Shown: piece after piece, positions 3,434 to 29,792 of the stretch | How the letters are laid out: each line of letters starts with the position of its first letter | Numbering within the stretch: the stretch's first letter is position 1 | Virus record (IMG/VR): IMGVR_UViG_3300045988_041360 | Coordinates: 1 to 38,582 of that record | Reading direction: 5' to 3' (one strand) | DNA length: 38,582 nucleotides | From: a virus | The notes under the pieces: model-generated | The model's database searches: none | What the model was told of the DNA's origin: nothing | Seen by the model: only the letters and a program-made list of their open reading frames with translations | Position numbers and translations under genes: made by a program

Positions 3434-3510
3434 GCAGACGTAGCTCAGTAGGCAAGAGCGTTTCGCCAATAATGAAAAGGTCGCTGGTTCAAGTCCAGCC
3501 GTCTGCACCA
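3434..3510 (+). tRNA. tRNA with encoded CCA; apparent anticodon AAT (Ile-like body) and an atypical anticodon loop CCAATAA
   Basis: Hand-folded cloverleaf: acceptor GCAGACG/CGTCTGC, D arm GCTC-AGTAGGCAA-GAGC, anticodon stem TTTCG/TGAAA, T arm GCTGG-TTCAAGT-CCAGC, discriminator A, CCA. Confidence 0.8.
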
Positions 3511-3797: not shown

Positions 3798-4373
3798 ATG
3801 GAAATCACAAAACGGCGGCTTGCGGATATTGTGCCGTATGCCGCAAACGCAAAAAAGCATGATAAGCGGCAAATCAACAACGTTGCGGAGAGCATCAAGC
3901 AGTATGGTTTTGTACAGCCGATTGTGATTGACCGTGACGGCGTGATCGTAATCGGCCACTGCCGTGCTTTGGCGGCAAAGAAGCTTGGTATGGAAGAAGT
4001 GCCTTGCGTCTGCGTAGACGATCTGACACCGGAGCAGGTGAACGCCCTGCGGCTGGTGGATAACAAGAGCAACGAGAGCGACTGGGACTTTGACCTCCTG
4101 GCTGATGAGCTGCCCGGTCTCGACCTGTCGGCGTTTGATTTCGACTGGGGGATTGAAAACGAGGATGAGTATGGCACTGATTTTTCCTTGCCGGATGGGG
4201 ACAAATCGGAAATCTGCCAAATGACATTTACGCTCCACGAACAGCAAAAAGAACTAATCGAATATGCTATGACGTGCGTTGAAGATGAAATAACAGAAAC
4301 GTTTGGCAACGCCAATAAAAACGGGAACGCATTGTATGAGGTGATACGGCAATGGGCAGCGCAAAAGACCTGA
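3798..4373 (+). CDS. ParB-like N-terminal (nuclease/NTPase) domain protein
   Basis: [54 protein letters not shown] matches the ParB/Srx-fold core motif; AGGAGG SD. Confidence 0.8.
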
Positions 4374-5083
4374 TTGTAAAAGTTATTCCAAGCAAGGTTG
4401 CCGTTCCGTTTATGAAAACGCACCATTACAGCGGCAAGGTTGTGAATAACAGCAATTTGCATTTCGGCGTGTTTTACGAAGGCAGACTTCACGGCGTCAT
4501 GTCCTTTGGCCCGTCTTTGGATAAGTCTAAAATCCAAGGGCTTGTTGATGGAACCGGGTGGAACGAATTCATCGAATTGAACCGCATGGCGTTTGACGAT
4601 GTTCTCCCACGCAATAGCGAAAGCCGCGCGATTTCGATTGCAATGAAACTAATCCGCAAAAACGCGCCGCAAATCAAATGGGTAATTTCGTTTGCGGATG
4701 GGTGTTCGTGCGGAGACGGGACGATATACAGAGCGAGTGGTTTTGTTTTGACGGCAATTAAACCGAACGGAAACCTTGTACAACTTCCGAACGGTGAGAA
4801 AATACACAAGATGACCCTCGAAAGCAATCCAACATCCCCGCGAAAAGAACTTGGCGGCAAAAGCTATTACGATATAACCGGCGGCAACTTCAATTTCAAA
4901 AAATATGTGGCTTATGTCGGCGGTGAGATTTTGACCGGGTACCAACTCCGATATATCTATTTTATTGACCAAACATATAGAGACCGGCTTACCGTTCCTA
5001 TCATTCCGTTTTCCAAAATCGACGAAATGGGCGCTGGAATGTACAAAGGGGAAAAGGTAACGCAAGCAGAAAGGCACCAGTGA
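4352..5083 (+). CDS. GNAT-fold, Mom-like (adenine methylcarbamoylation family-like) protein; putative DNA-modification enzyme
   Basis: [11 protein letters not shown]..., [16 protein letters not shown]...[15 protein letters not shown]...GTIYRASGF. From memory this resembles the phage Mom-family/GNAT pattern. The start overlaps the ParB-like gene by 22 nt. Confidence 0.45.
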
Positions 5084-5094
5084 CACGGCAATAT

Positions 5095-5169
5095 GCGGCG
5101 GTAGTTTAACGGTAAAACGTTCCGCATCCTGCGGAAAGATGGCGGTTCAACTCCGACCTCGCTGCTCCA
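5095..5169 (+). tRNA. tRNA-Gly(TCC)-like gene with encoded CCA, an aberrant anticodon loop (CATCCTG) and a bulged T stem; possibly non-canonical or a pseudo-tRNA
   Basis: Acceptor GCGGCGG/TCGCTGC (two G-U pairs), D arm GTTT-AACGGTA-AAAC (Gly-UCC type), anticodon stem TTCCG/CGGAA, 4-nt variable loop, T arm GGCGG-TTCAACT-CCG(A)CC, discriminator T, CCA. Confidence 0.5.
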
Positions 5170-6850: not shown

Positions 6851-8206
6851 GTGGCGGTGGGCGAGGACGAAAAGGCGCGGATGGAGTTTATCCGCAGTGC
6901 GATCAACGCGCATCGTGAATCCCACGCATATAAGACGGCGGCGGATGCTGAGGAATATTACAACGGGCTGAATCCGACAATCAACCGCTATGAAAAGATC
7001 ATCTATGATATGCAGGGCCGCGCCCACGCGGATATGTGGACGGCAAACCACAAGCTGGCCAGCCGATTCTTCGGTCTGGCGGTGGATCAGGAGGTATCGT
7101 ATCTTCTGGGCAACGGCGTGACCTTCGCGGAGAAGGAAACCCCGAACAAGCTATGCCCGGACTTCGACCAGGAAGTCATGGATGCGGCGCGTGAAGCGAA
7201 AATCGCAGGCGTGTCCTTCGGCTTCTGGGACCTGACGCATTTGCGGGTGTTCTCCCTGCTTGAGTTCGTTCCCCTCTATGATGAGGAAGACGGCGCAATG
7301 AAAGCCGGTATCCGGTTTTGGCAGGTGGCACAGGATAAGCCGTTGAGAGCGACGCTATATGAGATCGACGGTTTTACCGAGTATATCCAACCAAGCGGCG
7401 AGGATATGGCCGTCATGCAACCGAAGCGCAGTTATAAGCTGATCGAGCGCAAGGCGGAGGTCGGCGAAACCGAAATCTATGACGGCGGAAATTATCCGAG
7501 TTTCCCCATCGTGCCGCTGAAAAACAACAAGCGATGCCTATCCGAGATTGCTGGCAAGCGCAACACCATTGACGCACTGGATCTGGCGTCTTCCAACATG
7601 GTAAACAACGTGGACGAGGGCAATCTGATCTATTGGGTGATTTCCAATTGTGAGGGCATGACGGATCTGGACGATGCAAAGTTTATTGAACGGCTGAAAA
7701 CCATCCATGTTGCCCACGCAAACGGCGATGATGGCGCAAAGGTGGAGAGTAAGACCATCGAGGCTCCCTATGAGGGCACCAGCAGCACCATTGATATGCT
7801 CAAGAAAAAGCTGTACGAGGATTTCCAGTGCTTTGACGCAACGGCGGTATCCGCCGGGAACCAGACGGCGACCGCAATCAAGGCCAGCTATGTGCCCCTT
7901 GATTTGAAAACGGACAAGTTTGAATCCGAGGTAACGCGGTTTATTTTGGAAATCCTGCGTTTGGCAGGCATTGAGGATCAGCCAACCTACACGCGTAATC
8001 AGATCATCAACAAGAGCGAGGAAACGCAGAACATCCTTCTGGGCGCTGCGTATTACGATGACGAGTACATCACAAAGAAGTTGCTAACCATCAACGGCGA
8101 CATTGACCAGTACGAGGACATGGCAAAGAGGAAAGCAGCAGAAGTGATCGACCGCAGCTTTGCGGAGCCGGGCGCGCCAGGGGTGAGCGGCGATGGCGAC
8201 CAGTGA
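6851..8206 (+). CDS. Portal protein (SPP1 gp6-like)
   Basis: Size, position and SPP1-portal-like sequence. The GTG start at 6851 is from the track. The frame is open from 6824, and an ATT at 6830 behind GGGGTGAGCGGAG is an alternative start. Confidence 0.85.
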   Translation: MAVGEDEKARMEFIRSAINAHRESHAYKTAADAEEYYNGLNPTINRYEKIIYDMQGRAHADMWTANHKLASRFFGLAVDQEVSYLLGNGVTFAEKETPNKLCPDFDQEVMDAAREAKIAGVSFGFWDLTHLRVFSLLEFVPLYDEEDGAMKAGIRFWQVAQDKPLRATLYEIDGFTEYIQPSGEDMAVMQPKRSYKLIERKAEVGETEIYDGGNYPSFPIVPLKNNKRCLSEIAGKRNTIDALDLASSNMVNNVDEGNLIYWVISNCEGMTDLDDAKFIERLKTIHVAHANGDDGAKVESKTIEAPYEGTSSTIDMLKKKLYEDFQCFDATAVSAGNQTATAIKASYVPLDLKTDKFESEVTRFILEILRLAGIEDQPTYTRNQIINKSEETQNILLGAAYYDDEYITKKLLTINGDIDQYEDMAKRKAAEVIDRSFAEPGAPGVSGDGDQ

Positions 8207-9713
8207 TCTTGGGCATCAACTGACAGACAAGGAGCTTGCAAAGCTGGAACGGCGTATTGCAAAACTATACCGCGAGGCGGGGGAAGAACTGCAAGCTACC
8301 ATCGACTCATATTTCGAGCAATTCAAAAAGCGCGACGAGGAAATGAAGGCGCTGATCGGCACCGTGCAGAACGGAAAGGAATGGACGGAGGCCGACTATA
8401 AGCAATGGCGGCTGAACCAGATCGGGCGTGGGGAACGCTATCAGGCAATGCGTGACAGGGTGGCACACCGCGTGACCGATGCAAACGCTGTGGCGGTGTC
8501 CTACACAAACGATGCAACGCCTGGTATTTACTCCCTTAACCGCAATTATGCGGCGTACACTATCGAGAGTGTGGCTGGGGACGTGGGCTTTGACTTGTGG
8601 GACGAGCAGACGGTGAAACGCCTGATCGTGGAGAAACCGGGGTTGATGCCGTACTATCCAAAGGACAGGGCACTGAAACGAGGGATTGATCTCGCATATG
8701 GCAAGAAGCAAATTACGGCCAGTGTCACCAGCTCCATCTTACAGGGAAAGAGCATCAAGCGCATGGCGAATGACCTACAAAAGCGGATCACCACCATGAG
8801 CCGCGATTCCGCCATCCGCACCGCAAGAACCGCCGTGACCGGCGCGCAGAACGCCGGACGCATGGACAGCTACGCGGCGGCGGAGAAGATGGGCATTAAG
8901 CTCAAGAAACAATGGCTTGCGACGCTGGACAATCGCACGCGGCACGCTCATGCCATGCTGGACGGCCAGACGGTGGACATTGAAAAGCCGTTTAAGGTCG
9001 ACGGTTACGATATCATGTTCCCCGGGGACACATCCGCACCCGGCTACCTCGTGTATAACTGCCGTTGTACAATGGTTGCGGATGTGGATGGAGTAAATTC
9101 CACGGGCCAAAGACGCGCCAGAAACCCGGTTACAGGTGAAAACGAGATCGTTTCAAATATGACCTATTCAGAGTGGGCGGCACAGAAAGAAGCGGAAAAT
9201 GCTACAGCGTGGGGCATCTTTATCAAAAAAGGCCGGAATCTATCGGCAGACACGAAGCAATGGAAAGAATACAAGGCGGTTCTGAGCAAAAAAGTTCCGA
9301 ATACCGTTGAAGATTTCCAGAATTTGAAGTATAATGAACCTGAAAAGTGGGCGCAATTAAAAACCACAAAGCGGCAGATTGTTGTTGTTAAAAATGCGGA
9401 GTGCAGAACAACACCCAAAAAATACACAGGCTATTTCCTGAAAAATGGAGCAAAACACGCAGACCAATTCTTTGATGTTGGATATACGGCAGACAATCCG
9501 CTCCAATTGCGCTATGATATGGCAAGGCAGTTTAACATGGAAAAGGCTGTGGATTTTAAAGAATTAGGCGGCGGAGCTGTGCGTTTTAATATTTCCATGG
9601 AACTTGGTGTGACGAAACAACGAACGTTTTGCACTGGCTGGATAAAGGATGAATCAGAAAGCAAACCGCGTATCATAACGGCCTTTAGGAAAAACAAGGA
9701 GGATGCGGGATGA
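8193..9713 (+). CDS. MuF/SPP1 gp7-family head morphogenesis protein with a C-terminal DUF6883-like extension of about 175 aa
   Basis: NRTRHAHAMLDGQTV...PGYLVYNCRCTM is the MuF core. The C-terminus KKYTGYFLKNGAKHADQFFDVGYTADN...KPRIITAF is an add-on domain. Confidence 0.85.
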   Translation: MATSDLGHQLTDKELAKLERRIAKLYREAGEELQATIDSYFEQFKKRDEEMKALIGTVQNGKEWTEADYKQWRLNQIGRGERYQAMRDRVAHRVTDANAVAVSYTNDATPGIYSLNRNYAAYTIESVAGDVGFDLWDEQTVKRLIVEKPGLMPYYPKDRALKRGIDLAYGKKQITASVTSSILQGKSIKRMANDLQKRITTMSRDSAIRTARTAVTGAQNAGRMDSYAAAEKMGIKLKKQWLATLDNRTRHAHAMLDGQTVDIEKPFKVDGYDIMFPGDTSAPGYLVYNCRCTMVADVDGVNSTGQRRARNPVTGENEIVSNMTYSEWAAQKEAENATAWGIFIKKGRNLSADTKQWKEYKAVLSKKVPNTVEDFQNLKYNEPEKWAQLKTTKRQIVVVKNAECRTTPKKYTGYFLKNGAKHADQFFDVGYTADNPLQLRYDMARQFNMEKAVDFKELGGGAVRFNISMELGVTKQRTFCTGWIKDESESKPRIITAFRKNKEDAG

Positions 9714-9874
9714 TCCGTGAATATGATCGTGTAAAGGTAAAAAGTACTGGGGATACCGGTATTGTTGTCGACATCAGAAATACCAACGGGACGTATTTTT
9801 TGGTGGAAAGAGACAGCGATAACGAACTGATTGACTGCACTGCCAGCGAACTGGAAAAATTGGGCAGAGGATAA
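9710..9874 (+). CDS. 54-aa DUF4926-like protein (not in the ORF track); candidate partner or immunity protein for the MuF C-terminal domain
   Basis: ATGA overlap with the MuF stop, AAGGAGGA SD 6 nt upstream; MIREYDRVKVKSTGDTGIVVDIRNTNGTYFLVERDSDNELIDCTASELEKLGRG. Confidence 0.65.
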   Translation: MIREYDRVKVKSTGDTGIVVDIRNTNGTYFLVERDSDNELIDCTASELEKLGRG

Positions 9875-9876
9875 CA

Positions 9877-10275
9877 ATGAACATTGATATTCAAGACCAC
9901 AGTGCGGAGGTTTCCGCTGAGATCAAGGCGGCGCTGCTGCGGGGCCTTGAAAAGATCGGGCTGGTGGTAGAAGGATATGCGAAAAAGCTGTGCCCCGTTG
10001 ACACCGGCAATCTGCGGAACAGCATTACCCATATGATAGACGAGCAGGAACCGGCGGCAATCATCGGCACGAACAATGAGTATGCCGCTTACGTCGAGCT
10101 TGGCACAGGCATTTACGCCGAGGGCGGACGGCCTACACCGTGGGTGTACCAGGACGCGAAGGGGAATTGGCATTACACGCGCGGCAACAAGGCACAGCCG
10201 TTTTTGAAACCCGCTGCCGCCGACCATGTGGGACAGTATCGAGATATTCTGGAAAGCGAGCTGAAAAATGGATAA
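9877..10275 (+). CDS. HK97 gp10-family head-tail joining protein
   Basis: AKKLCPVDTGNLRNSI...NEYAAYVELGTG is the gp10-family signature. Confidence 0.7.
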   Translation: MNIDIQDHSAEVSAEIKAALLRGLEKIGLVVEGYAKKLCPVDTGNLRNSITHMIDEQEPAAIIGTNNEYAAYVELGTGIYAEGGRPTPWVYQDAKGNWHYTRGNKAQPFLKPAAADHVGQYRDILESELKNG

Positions 10276-10393
10276 GGACTTTATTAAGGCGGTGGAGGCC
10301 GTACTTGCGACCGGCGCAAGAGTGCAGCTCAAGCAGATGAAGGACGGGAGCATCAAGGCGCAGATCGTCAAGATGGAAGAAATCAAAAAATAA
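10268..10393 (+). CDS. 41-aa hypothetical protein (not in the ORF track)
   Basis: ATG overlaps the end of the upstream gene (ATGGATAA); MDKDFIKAVEAVLATGARVQLKQMKDGSIKAQIVKMEEIKK; followed by a terminator. Confidence 0.4.
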   Translation: MDKDFIKAVEAVLATGARVQLKQMKDGSIKAQIVKMEEIKK

Positions 10394-10433: not shown

Positions 10434-10477
10434 GAGCCAACTACTGAGTTTTTCTCGGTGGTTGGCTCTTTTGTTTT
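10434..10477 (+). terminator. Rho-independent terminator
   Basis: GAGCCAAC(tact)...GTTGGCTC long stem followed by TTTTGTTTT. Confidence 0.7.
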
Positions 10478-28760: not shown

Positions 28761-29792
28761 TTAATTGTTCATCTGTAATTTTATCTGTAATTCTTTTTCG
28801 AAATAGCGATCGAGGTTATCTGCAACCTGCTTTGATTTCTTGCTAATTGTATGCTGATACACGTTTTTAAGCATATTGTTTGTGGCGTGTCCCATTCGCT
28901 CCATAGCGTATTTGTCTGGCACGTTCTGTTCAAGCATTACAGATGCGTTGACGTGGCGCAGATCGTGAAAGCGGAATGGAGGGATATCATGGCGGATACA
29001 AGCGCGTCTTAAATGGTTATACATGGCGCTGCGGGTGTAGTGCACGATATATTCGTCTGTGCGCGGCGTTTCCTTCAGTAGGTGCATTATGTATGGAGGG
29101 ATCTGCAAGCGTCGGTTTCCGCTGTATGTTTTCGGCTGCTTTAACTCAGGCCCGTTTTCACCTTCAACGAGTGCTTGCTTGATGATAAGCGTATTCCCAT
29201 CAATGCAATCCCATGTCAGGCCGCGAATCTCCGATGTTCTTAGACCAAGCCAGACGGCCAGCAGAAACGGCAGCTCAAATTGTTTCCCACGGCAATCCTC
29301 ATGCAGTGTCCGGATCTGGTCCATGGTGGGTATTTTGATTTTTGGAGCTTCCTTCTGTGGCAGCGTAATGCGGAACATCCGATCTGGGAAATATTCTGCC
29401 ATTGCTGCGGTGAACAACCCGTAGGCATTGCGGACGTATTTAGGCGATTTGGAGCGAGCCATTTTATTGACGGCCCGTTGTACACGCTCTTGCGAAATGC
29501 TATCCGCTGGATCATCCATGATTTCCTGGAAAACGGATTTGCGGAGCTTTTTATACCCATTGATCGTAGTAGGGGATAGAACGGTATCTTTGCTGGAGAT
29601 GTATCTATCGATTACTTCTCCAACGGTGAACCTTGTTTTTATCTTGGCGGCTTTGGCACCAGACTTGATGGCGGCAGCTTCATTTTCAGCTTCTCGCTTG
29701 GTCGGAGCCGTGATGGAGAGACGCTTCCCGTCTATCATGATGTTGATATACCATGAGCCGGACGGCAACTTTACCGCCTTCGGTATCTTCAT
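28761..29792 (-). CDS. int: Tyrosine integrase (site-specific recombinase, phage integrase family)
   Basis: GLRTSEIRGLTW..., HDLRHVNASVMLEQNV..., MGHATNNMLKNVYQH (R...HxxR...Y catalytic pattern) and an N-terminal SAM-like/arm-binding domain. Confidence 0.95.
   Translation of the reverse strand: MKIPKAVKLPSGSWYINIMIDGKRLSITAPTKREAENEAAAIKSGAKAAKIKTRFTVGEVIDRYISSKDTVLSPTTINGYKKLRKSVFQEIMDDPADSISQERVQRAVNKMARSKSPKYVRNAYGLFTAAMAEYFPDRMFRITLPQKEAPKIKIPTMDQIRTLHEDCRGKQFELPFLLAVWLGLRTSEIRGLTWDCIDGNTLIIKQALVEGENGPELKQPKTYSGNRRLQIPPYIMHLLKETPRTDEYIVHYTRSAMYNHLRRACIRHDIPPFRFHDLRHVNASVMLEQNVPDKYAMERMGHATNNMLKNVYQHTISKKSKQVADNLDRYFEKELQIKLQMNN
28770..28790 (+). repeat. Two more copies of the (C/T)ATCTGTAA repeat (28770, 28782), inside the 3' end of the integrase gene (P' arm)
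   Basis: ttCATCTGTAAtttTATCTGTAAtt, same orientation as the 28547-28591 copies. Confidence 0.65.

Follow-up and report, generated by a model that had tools for sequence, protein, structure and literature searches.

A candidate toxin/immunity cassette at the 3' end of a MuF head gene in a temperate phage of gut Clostridia

Why does a phage head protein carry a long C-terminal extension that close relatives replace or lack, and what is the small gene whose start codon overlaps its stop? These questions are raised by a DNA stretch of 38,582 nucleotides (positions 1 to 38,582 of IMG/VR virus record IMGVR_UViG_3300045988_041360; hereafter, the window), in which a gene for a MuF head protein is followed by a very short open reading frame (ORF). 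A reading made from the letters of the window alone (the sequence-only reading) had proposed that the MuF protein ends in a DUF6883-like domain, that the overlapping ORF of 54 amino acids (aa) is DUF4926-like, and that the two form a toxin/immunity-like pair delivered via the capsid. Following up this proposal computationally, we consider it likely that the segment from about 9181 to 9874 is a horizontally exchanged cassette of the toxin/immunity type, attached to the 3' end of the MuF (SPP1 gp7-like) gene, whose product would be carried by the capsid. The locus is a well-delimited new example of the known class of MuF polymorphic toxins, not a new kind of system.

Replacement of the 3' end on near-identical MuF cores

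The MuF ORF (8193..9713, plus strand) contains YNCRCTMVADVDG, and its product has the C terminus ...PRIITAFRKNKEDAG. That this product is a MuF head protein, as the sequence-only reading had stated, is borne out by a Phage_Mu_F match at aa 173-294 with 66.5 bits against a cut-off of 29.6 (Pfam) and by the PHROGs label of minor head or head-morphogenesis protein (phrog_115, E 1.5e-46); NCBIfam gave nothing relevant except a match of phageSPP1_gp7 on the MuF core. The ORF coordinates, the overlap of the MuF stop and the start of the 54-aa ORF as ATGA, and the Shine-Dalgarno sequence (SD) of the latter were also as described there (ORF listing, sequence). By contrast, the core does not end where it had been placed, near YNCRC: the stretch common to relatives extends about 45 aa beyond this motif, to ...MTYSEWAAQK (aa ~334). 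The added part comprises aa 335-506, i.e. 172 residues, which is near the earlier figure of about 175.

We collected 80 IMG/VR loci with a MuF core 84-96% identical to that of the window, 79 of which could be typed. After ...MTYSEWA.QK, these 79 relatives carry 11 unrelated C-terminal clusters, namely the DUF6883-like cluster and 10 others, and six of them have a short MuF protein without an extension. Two of the clusters are ADP-ribosyltransferases (ADPrib_exo_Tox, E 1e-31 and 7e-15), and HExxH motifs are present in several other clusters. Each of the other cassette types either has unrelated small ORFs of its own (57-102 aa) or lacks them; in the phages with a short MuF protein, an HK97-gp10-like gene (hereafter, gp10-like gene) overlaps the MuF stop directly.

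The edges of the cassette are known to within a few bases. DNA homology (blastn) to relatives with another C terminus or none amounts to 84-93%, ends at 9177-9180 and restarts at 9872-9877; the start coordinate of 9183 in the sequence-only reading is essentially the left breakpoint. Moreover, the G+C content drops from about 55% to about 42% from about 9200 to 9880, and is 42.8% in 9195-9874 compared with 55.4% in the MuF core and 55.1% in the gp10-like gene.

The small ORF is inherited strictly together with the DUF6883-like domain. Its family is represented in 30/30 relatives of the DUF6883 type and in 0/49 relatives with another or no C terminus. Starting from the small ORF, we retrieved 72 IMG/VR loci (loci are cited by L numbers), and in 70/72 the toxin domain ends a few bases upstream. 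As for the exceptions, the contig ends 63 nt 5' of the small ORF in L030, and in L089 the contig starts 1.2 kb before the small ORF, with other small ORFs in between but no toxin domain. In total, the pair behaves as a polymorphic MuF cassette, and this comparative evidence supports the toxin/immunity reading, as the sequence-only reading had it. The near-isogenic phages with other toxins or none also provide a natural comparative system for MuF toxin packaging, injection and function.

Two observations on relatives are made in their own right. The second commonest type on the MuF core, the C2 cluster (18 loci; L116-L123, L133-L136 and others), has a C terminus of about 205 aa that ends in ...LLFARRYKK and matches no Pfam family; at most of these loci there is no downstream ORF of at least 30 aa, and the cluster is apparently a payload without an immunity gene. 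In L001 (5860-5880, corresponding to about position 9195 of the window), an in-frame TAG lies exactly at the core/cassette junction (EWEAWKK, stop, ENATAW...). The gene is thereby divided into a short MuF of 331 aa and a DUF6883 part without a start codon, while the small ORF is undamaged. Possibly the toxin has become a pseudogene and its immunity gene was kept, or the stop is read through at a low level; a junction TAG is rare, being found in one lineage of about 40 distinct cassettes.

The C-terminal domain and its 54-residue partner

Scanned alone, the C-terminal domain matches DUF6883 (PF21814) at aa 407-499, over profile positions 11-108 of 110 (98/110). The match is marginal, with 27.7 bits (E 3.5e-6) against a gathering score of 27, and the 177-aa tail (26.5 bits) and the full protein (24.2 bits) score below this cut-off. 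DUF6883 is, however, also matched by 12/13 close and 45/55 distant (longer) homologues, with a best E of 3.1e-15. Thus, the Pfam scan upholds the DUF6883-like C terminus of the sequence-only reading, and by its profile matches the domain of the window belongs to a divergent, phage-head-associated branch of DUF6883. An exhaustive profile search recovered 234 representative clusters, with proteins of 100-870 aa in which the domain is always located at the extreme C terminus. The N-terminal domains recognised in the 55 longer homologues are Phage_Mu_F (24), Phage_min_cap2 (9), VG15 (9) and LPD3 (1), and the structure matches in BFVD are C termini of minor capsid proteins of gut siphoviruses.

The sequence-only reading had also proposed a comparison with nuclease-type toxin models. 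In the Pfam scan, no other toxin family matched at E<=1. The AlphaFold2 (AF2) model of the domain, built from a 57-sequence alignment, has a predicted local distance difference test (pLDDT) score of 90.4 and a predicted template modelling score (pTM) of 0.80, and consists of three helices followed by a four-stranded sheet. In Foldseek against the PDB, the top four matches are chains A/C/E/G of 6cp9 (109-119 residues) with template modelling (TM) scores of 0.64-0.68, a probability of 1.00 and E ~9e-3; HigB2 is at rank 43 in the same list. The entry 6CP9 is the CdiA-CT/CdiI complex of Klebsiella pneumoniae 342 (Kp342), the toxin of which is a transfer RNA (tRNA)-cleaving ribonuclease (tRNase) with a BECR fold (PMC9086364). 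We took the matched chains to be the toxin because they are of the helix-plus-sheet type, unlike the all-beta CdiI. On this model, a BECR (Barnase/EndoU/Colicin/RelE) fold is predicted for the domain. At the sequence level, phmmer searches with both proteins and a search with the family profile against the PDB returned only chance matches (an OXA beta-lactamase fragment, a lectin, a myosin), and no BECR toxin in the PDB was detected by either means.

Several polar residues of the domain are near-invariant: K410 (55/55), H422 (55/57), Y431 (56/57), R493 (51 R, 6 K) and T496 (51 T, 6 S). CdiA-CT of Kp342, which has the active-site residues K157, Y160, H170, R252 and T255, acts on uncharged tRNA-Ile(GAU) with GTP, EF-Tu and EF-Ts (PMC9086364). 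The phage domain shares with it the topology of N-terminal helices followed by a four-stranded antiparallel sheet, as far as the prediction goes, and conserved K, H, R and T with similar spacing (K to H, +12 here and +13 in Kp342; R-x-x-T, +3 in both); in both cases the domain is located at the C terminus of a polymorphic toxin, or here a candidate one, and is followed by an immunity or candidate immunity gene. By contrast, the two domains have no detectable sequence similarity, CdiA-CT is delivered by a two-partner-secretion filament in contact-dependent inhibition (CDI) and not by a phage capsid, and CdiI is a larger all-beta protein that is not among the fold matches of the small ORF.

The small ORF (9710..9874) begins MIREYDRVKVKSTGDTG... 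and has homologues in more than 100 clusters at 90% identity in which the reading frame is kept. Its ratio of nonsynonymous to synonymous substitution rates (dN/dS) is ~0.12, i.e. it is under purifying selection; because synonymous sites are saturated across the toxin domains (ungapped alignment), this value is for the small ORF alone. Together with a confident structural model, the frame-keeping homologues and the low dN/dS identify the small ORF as a real gene and not a chance frame. The AF2 model of its product (44 sequences) has a pLDDT of 94.8 and forms a five-stranded barrel, in line with the SH3/Tudor-like fold of the sequence-only reading. Its fold matches in the PDB, all with E > 5e-3, are HspQ (TM 0.83), KOW domains of Spt5/NusG, the PcrA Tudor domain and NdhS, and as modelled the small protein is a generic SH3-like small barrel. 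Members of the partner family have 51-68 aa. The two products of the cassette are oppositely charged: the domain is basic, with an isoelectric point (pI) of 9.3, while the small protein has a pI of 4.7 (family median 4.4; 47/47 sampled members <6.6). A gene of 54 aa falls under the usual ORF-length cut-offs, yet this one is among the best-conserved features of the module, and an annotation gap is corrected here.

The DUF4926 label given to the small ORF did not hold: in three Pfam tests, membership was rejected at the sequence level. The ORF of the window has no match to DUF4926 (PF16277) at E<=1, and among relatives matches were found in 1/17 and 2/47, all sub-threshold (best E 0.023, 14.6 bits against a cut-off of 29.1); none of 107 clusters of small-ORF homologues has a precomputed Pfam domain. 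The small ORF shares with DUF4926 its small size and a probable SH3-like beta-barrel. Since weak matches to MSSS SH3 are far commoner (31/47 family members), this likeness is one of the generic fold. We treat the small protein as a member of an unclassified family, which may or may not have a remote kinship to DUF4926.

The coding sequence of the linker contains a promoter-like element (Table 1). The 12-mer TTGAAGTATAAT (encoding LKYN) is invariant, synonymous positions included, in 16/16 distinct MuF1-type sequences. The TTG of the -35 hexamer is kept despite amino-acid changes there (V/F/I/L then E/A/V/D), and variants of the 12-mer in L050 and L012 retain TTGAC/TTGAT at -35 and TATAAT/TATACT at -10. 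Moreover, the element lies in the sole 5-codon window, among 175 codons, with a third-position conservation of at least 0.95, the mean being 0.62. A transcript from this element would carry the small ORF with its own SD, and no in-frame start for the toxin domain was found in it; therefore, the small ORF might be transcribed without the toxin in lysogens. The element is possibly an internal promoter for the small ORF, a lead from a conservation pattern that may have another cause. In E-type colicin operons, the immunity gene has a constitutive promoter inside the colicin gene, and by analogy the linker element resembles these internal immunity promoters.

The pair is also found on other carriers. 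In L015-17, a protein with Phage_min_cap2 and DUF6883 (42.4 bits) is followed by a 58-aa homologue of the small ORF; in L255, VG15 and DUF6883 are followed by a 68-aa ORF; and in L173 (2501-3189), a 160-aa protein with DUF7211 and DUF6883, encoded between the genes for TerL and an HK97-type portal, is followed by a 67-aa ORF of the small-ORF family. Stand-alone DUF6883-like genes of 111-124 aa, each with a 57-aa ORF after it, are present in L174 and L175, and the pair also occurs in GenBank MT837981. In L256 (2925-3415), a fragment of the toxin domain lies between two tandem immunity-like ORFs, and in L089 (230-2422) a run of seven small ORFs, one of which is a family member, precedes the gp10-like gene; both loci resemble the orphan immunity arrays of polymorphic toxin loci (CDI, Rhs).

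Two side observations bear on these carriers. Many short DUF6883-like proteins open with a conserved HYGVKGMKWGVRRSPEQLGH-type motif (alignment A5; Pfam DUF7211 in L173), and DUF7211 may be a second, MuF-independent way of attaching a DUF6883-like domain to phage heads. In L003-L007 (5990-8400), a prophage remnant is fixed beside bacterial glycoside-hydrolase and ATP-binding cassette (ABC)-transporter genes, in 22 contigs from several human cohorts. All that lies 5' of the linker is deleted; the remnant keeps the linker and the DUF6883 domain (a 175-aa ORF), a 51-aa ORF, the gp10-like gene and the scaffold gene, and retains a promoter-like TTGCAA, 17 nt, TATAAT.

Candidate mechanism and alternative explanations

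MuF toxins form a described class. Jamet et al. 2017 found a small ORF next downstream of 89% of MuF toxins, and Phage_Mu_F and Phage_min_cap2 are the MuF1 and MuF2 families of these authors (PMC5576092), with PF04233 or PF06152 at the N terminus as the criterion for a MuF domain. Validated MuF toxins are the EFV ADP-ribosyltransferase of Enterococcus faecalis V583 and Apk2, which forms an experimentally validated toxin/immunity pair with IapK (Apk2/IapK/Aph1) in a prophage of Streptococcus pneumoniae (PMC12226406). The present locus has in common with such toxins an N-terminal MuF domain, a place in the head module of a temperate Firmicute phage, a variable C terminus that is swapped among close relatives, an adjacent small ORF that changes along with it, and abundance in human-gut metagenomes. 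It differs from them in its partner, a predicted SH3-like barrel of 54 aa outside any Pfam family, and in its C-terminal domain (DUF6883-like, of BECR type by its model), which has no mention in the main text of Jamet et al. 2017; a term search of that main text found neither 'BECR' nor 'DUF4926'. Ct_MAD of Jamet et al., considered as a possible older name for the domain and compared by description only, is probably different, being found mainly in Proteobacterial phages and with COG2369 (PMC5576092).

MuF toxins abound in Firmicute phages of the human gut, but only few of their C-terminal domains are characterised. The present locus provides a cleanly bounded cassette, in which a DUF6883-like domain of predicted BECR type is paired with an SH3-like partner whose family is absent from Pfam. 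The statement in the sequence-only reading that neither DUF6883 nor DUF4926 has a demonstrated activity now appears out of date: a 2026 bioRxiv preprint that classifies BECR ribonucleases (10.64898/2026.08.28.747851) names both, with six mentions of DUF6883 and two of DUF4926, which agrees with the BECR assignment of the domain. Operons of nuclease colicins (E3, E5, E9, D) likewise have a basic, ribonuclease (RNase)-type C terminus and a small acidic immunity protein encoded directly downstream; they differ in carrier, entry route and immunity fold, and the promoter here is a lead from sequence conservation only.

In the mechanism that we favour, the MuF core (aa 1-334) would be the carrier, and the capsid would incorporate the fusion protein, in a small number of copies, at the portal; SPP1 gp7 is present on the portal in 1-2 copies per capsid (PMC5576092). 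The C-terminal domain, of BECR type according to its model, would be the payload, most likely an RNase and probably a tRNase. The acidic barrel, which is translationally coupled to it, would most likely bind and block the domain in the producing or lysogenic cell. Finally, if SPP1 gp7 and the MuF-toxin model are a guide, the fusion protein would enter the next cell with the DNA.

Several points weigh against this mechanism. Many of the 30/30 loci in which the domain and the small ORF occur together are close kin and not independent observations. In a mirror-tree comparison, rho was 0.73 for the toxin domain and the small ORF, near the values of 0.66-0.70 for either part and the MuF core; the comparison was therefore uninformative and specific co-evolution of the two parts is not demonstrated. 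The likeness to a solved RNase is structural, obtained with a model and with a Foldseek E of ~9e-3, and the family profile finds no PDB sequence. Similarly, we infer the correspondence to the catalytic residues of Kp342 from conservation and spacing, and the equivalent of its tyrosine is uncertain: at Y414, 32 sequences have Y and 20 have F. Some BECR-fold proteins, e.g. ParE, are not RNases. Finally, for the family as a whole we infer toxicity, RNase activity and binding, and capsid delivery is a hypothesis even for characterised MuF toxins (PMC5576092).

The same molecules could serve the phage itself, as an injected effector (for host takeover, as an anti-defence RNase, or as a modulator of lysis and lysogeny) and not as an interbacterial toxin. 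The small protein would then act stoichiometrically, as an inhibitor or chaperone, so that during assembly the domain stays silent and can still be packaged. This explanation draws on the same biochemical evidence as the toxin/immunity reading, from which it differs in biological role and not in molecular mechanism, so that sequence cannot separate them. A role in the lysogeny decision was explicitly proposed by Jamet et al. (PMC5576092); moreover, the small ORF is translationally coupled to a late head gene and is therefore certainly made during virion production. However, the conserved promoter-like element fits expression outside the late programme better, as do the remnant in L003-L007, which keeps the pair, and the tandem orphan immunity-like ORFs in L256, and we regard an effector of this kind as unlikely.

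Quite improbable, in our assessment, is that the pair is a classical type II toxin-antitoxin (TA) or abortive-infection module (of the DUF6883/DUF4926 kind) that works in the lysogen, with the MuF fusion being incidental. While stand-alone DUF6883-like genes with the same small downstream ORF exist in L174 and L175, such stand-alone genes also adjoin terminase or portal genes, and the recognisable N-terminal partners in the 55 longer homologues are all of the phage head type except the one LPD3. BECR folds include RelE-type TA toxins, HigB2 is among the Foldseek matches, and the 2026 preprint on BECR ribonucleases names DUF6883 as well as DUF4926; by contrast, the order of toxin and then inhibitor is the arrangement of polymorphic toxins, ADP-ribosyltransferase toxins hold the same slot on near-identical MuF cores, the small ORF is below the DUF4926 threshold, and no PADLOC defence model matches the domain or the small protein. 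To the idea that the extension is a non-enzymatic, structural or nucleic-acid-binding head appendage, and the SH3-like protein an accessory of head assembly, we assign a very small probability. It would accord with SPP1 gp7 being a portal-associated capsid protein (PMC5576092) and with the frequent binding of nucleic acids or proteins by SH3, KOW and Tudor barrels; however, close relatives do without both parts and have short MuF genes that abut the gp10-like gene, the cassette has a foreign G+C content, relatives have known enzymatic toxins in this slot, and a pure appendage would hardly account for the near-invariant K, H, R and T.

The toxin/immunity reading can be extended, tentatively and with considerable doubt, to a weapon in kin discrimination. 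A constitutive internal promoter would confer immunity without the toxin on lysogens and on cells with remnants, and the cassette might then be a capsid-delivered, virion-borne BECR tRNase that discriminates between kin and non-kin. If this were true, bacteria with only a prophage remnant or orphan copies would also be immune to kin phages, the small proteins would represent a previously unclassified SH3-like immunity family, and the tRNase would possibly have a new RNA target.

Head module and surrounding genome

The MuF gene is placed between the SPP1-type portal gene and the scaffold and capsid genes, i.e. in the head/packaging module. The features of the locus are listed in Table 1. Located 3' of the gp10-like gene are, in order, a 41-aa ORF (10268-10393, phrog_29211), the scaffold gene and the capsid gene (Pfam, PHROGs).

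Table 1. Coordinates of the cassette, its parts and the adjoining genes in the window
Feature	Position	Strand	Evidence
SPP1-type portal gene, directly upstream of the MuF gene	6851..8206	+	Pfam SPP1_portal, E 2e-36
MuF-toxin gene, 506 aa: core, linker and C-terminal toxin-like domain	8193..9713	+	ORF listing, Phage_Mu_F, phrog_115
Conserved MuF core, aa 1 to about 330-334, proposed capsid vehicle	8193..9180	+	Cores of 80 IMG/VR relatives are 84-96% identical (aa)
Exchangeable cassette: linker, toxin-like domain and small ORF	9181..9874	+	G+C content, blastn breakpoints, replaced or absent in relatives
Linker, aa 335-403, limited to this cassette type	9195..9401	+	Alignment of cluster representatives diverges after ...MTYSEWA.QK
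Promoter-like element in the linker coding sequence: TTGAAG, 17 nt, TATAAT	9307..9335	+	Best site in scan, 10/12
C-terminal DUF6883-like domain, aa 404-506, basic, predicted BECR-type RNase fold	9402..9710	+	Pfam, AF2, Foldseek, conservation
Shine-Dalgarno sequence GGAGG, 7 nt before the ATG of the small ORF	9698..9702	+	Read from the sequence
54-aa acidic protein, predicted SH3-like barrel, candidate cognate immunity protein	9710..9874	+	Homologues, AF2, dN/dS, pI, linkage
HK97-gp10-like gene, conserved right-hand anchor of the cassette	9877..10275	+	Pfam HK97-gp10_like, E 7.8e-9; phrog_5

The window contains a Phage_integrase gene (28761-29792), from which we conclude that it derives from a temperate phage or prophage, and it also encodes a Sak-type annealing protein. 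The relatives come from Clostridia metagenome-assembled genomes and human-gut viromes, and the closest cultured relative of the MuF core is a Flavonifractor phage (~68% DNA identity). In total, the source is a temperate siphovirus of gut Clostridia. Just 5' of the terminase region, a Mom-family protein is encoded at 4352-5083 (Pfam Mom, E 4e-53), which suggests a DNA-modification function in this phage.

The phage also encodes a tRNA-Ile with the unusual anticodon AAT (3434-3510) and a tRNA-Gly(TCC) (5095-5169). Because the nearest structural match of the domain cleaves tRNA-Ile, we considered the tRNA-Ile(AAT) as a toxin-resistant replacement tRNA. Among the 79 relatives, searched with aragorn including 10-kb flanks, tRNA-Ile was found in 2/27 phages of the DUF6883 type and in 1/30 of other types, and the idea was rejected. 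The corresponding slot in relatives, ~4.8 kb upstream of the MuF gene, is occupied by Trp, Thr, Cys, Gln, Asp, Ser, Val or Ala tRNAs or by none; as it holds so many different tRNAs, the tRNA is not linked to the cassette type.

The position of the gp10-like (tail-completion or Neck1-type) gene after the MuF gene and before the scaffold and capsid genes is odd for its family, yet constant in this phage group. In the middle of the head operon, between the 41-aa ORF and the scaffold gene, there is a strong terminator-like hairpin (10434-10468) with a 15-bp stem that includes 8 G-C pairs and is followed by a T-run. Finally, the spacing between the gp10-like gene and the scaffold gene ranges from ~0.5 to ~2 kb among relatives, and this variation suggests a second variable (moron) slot.

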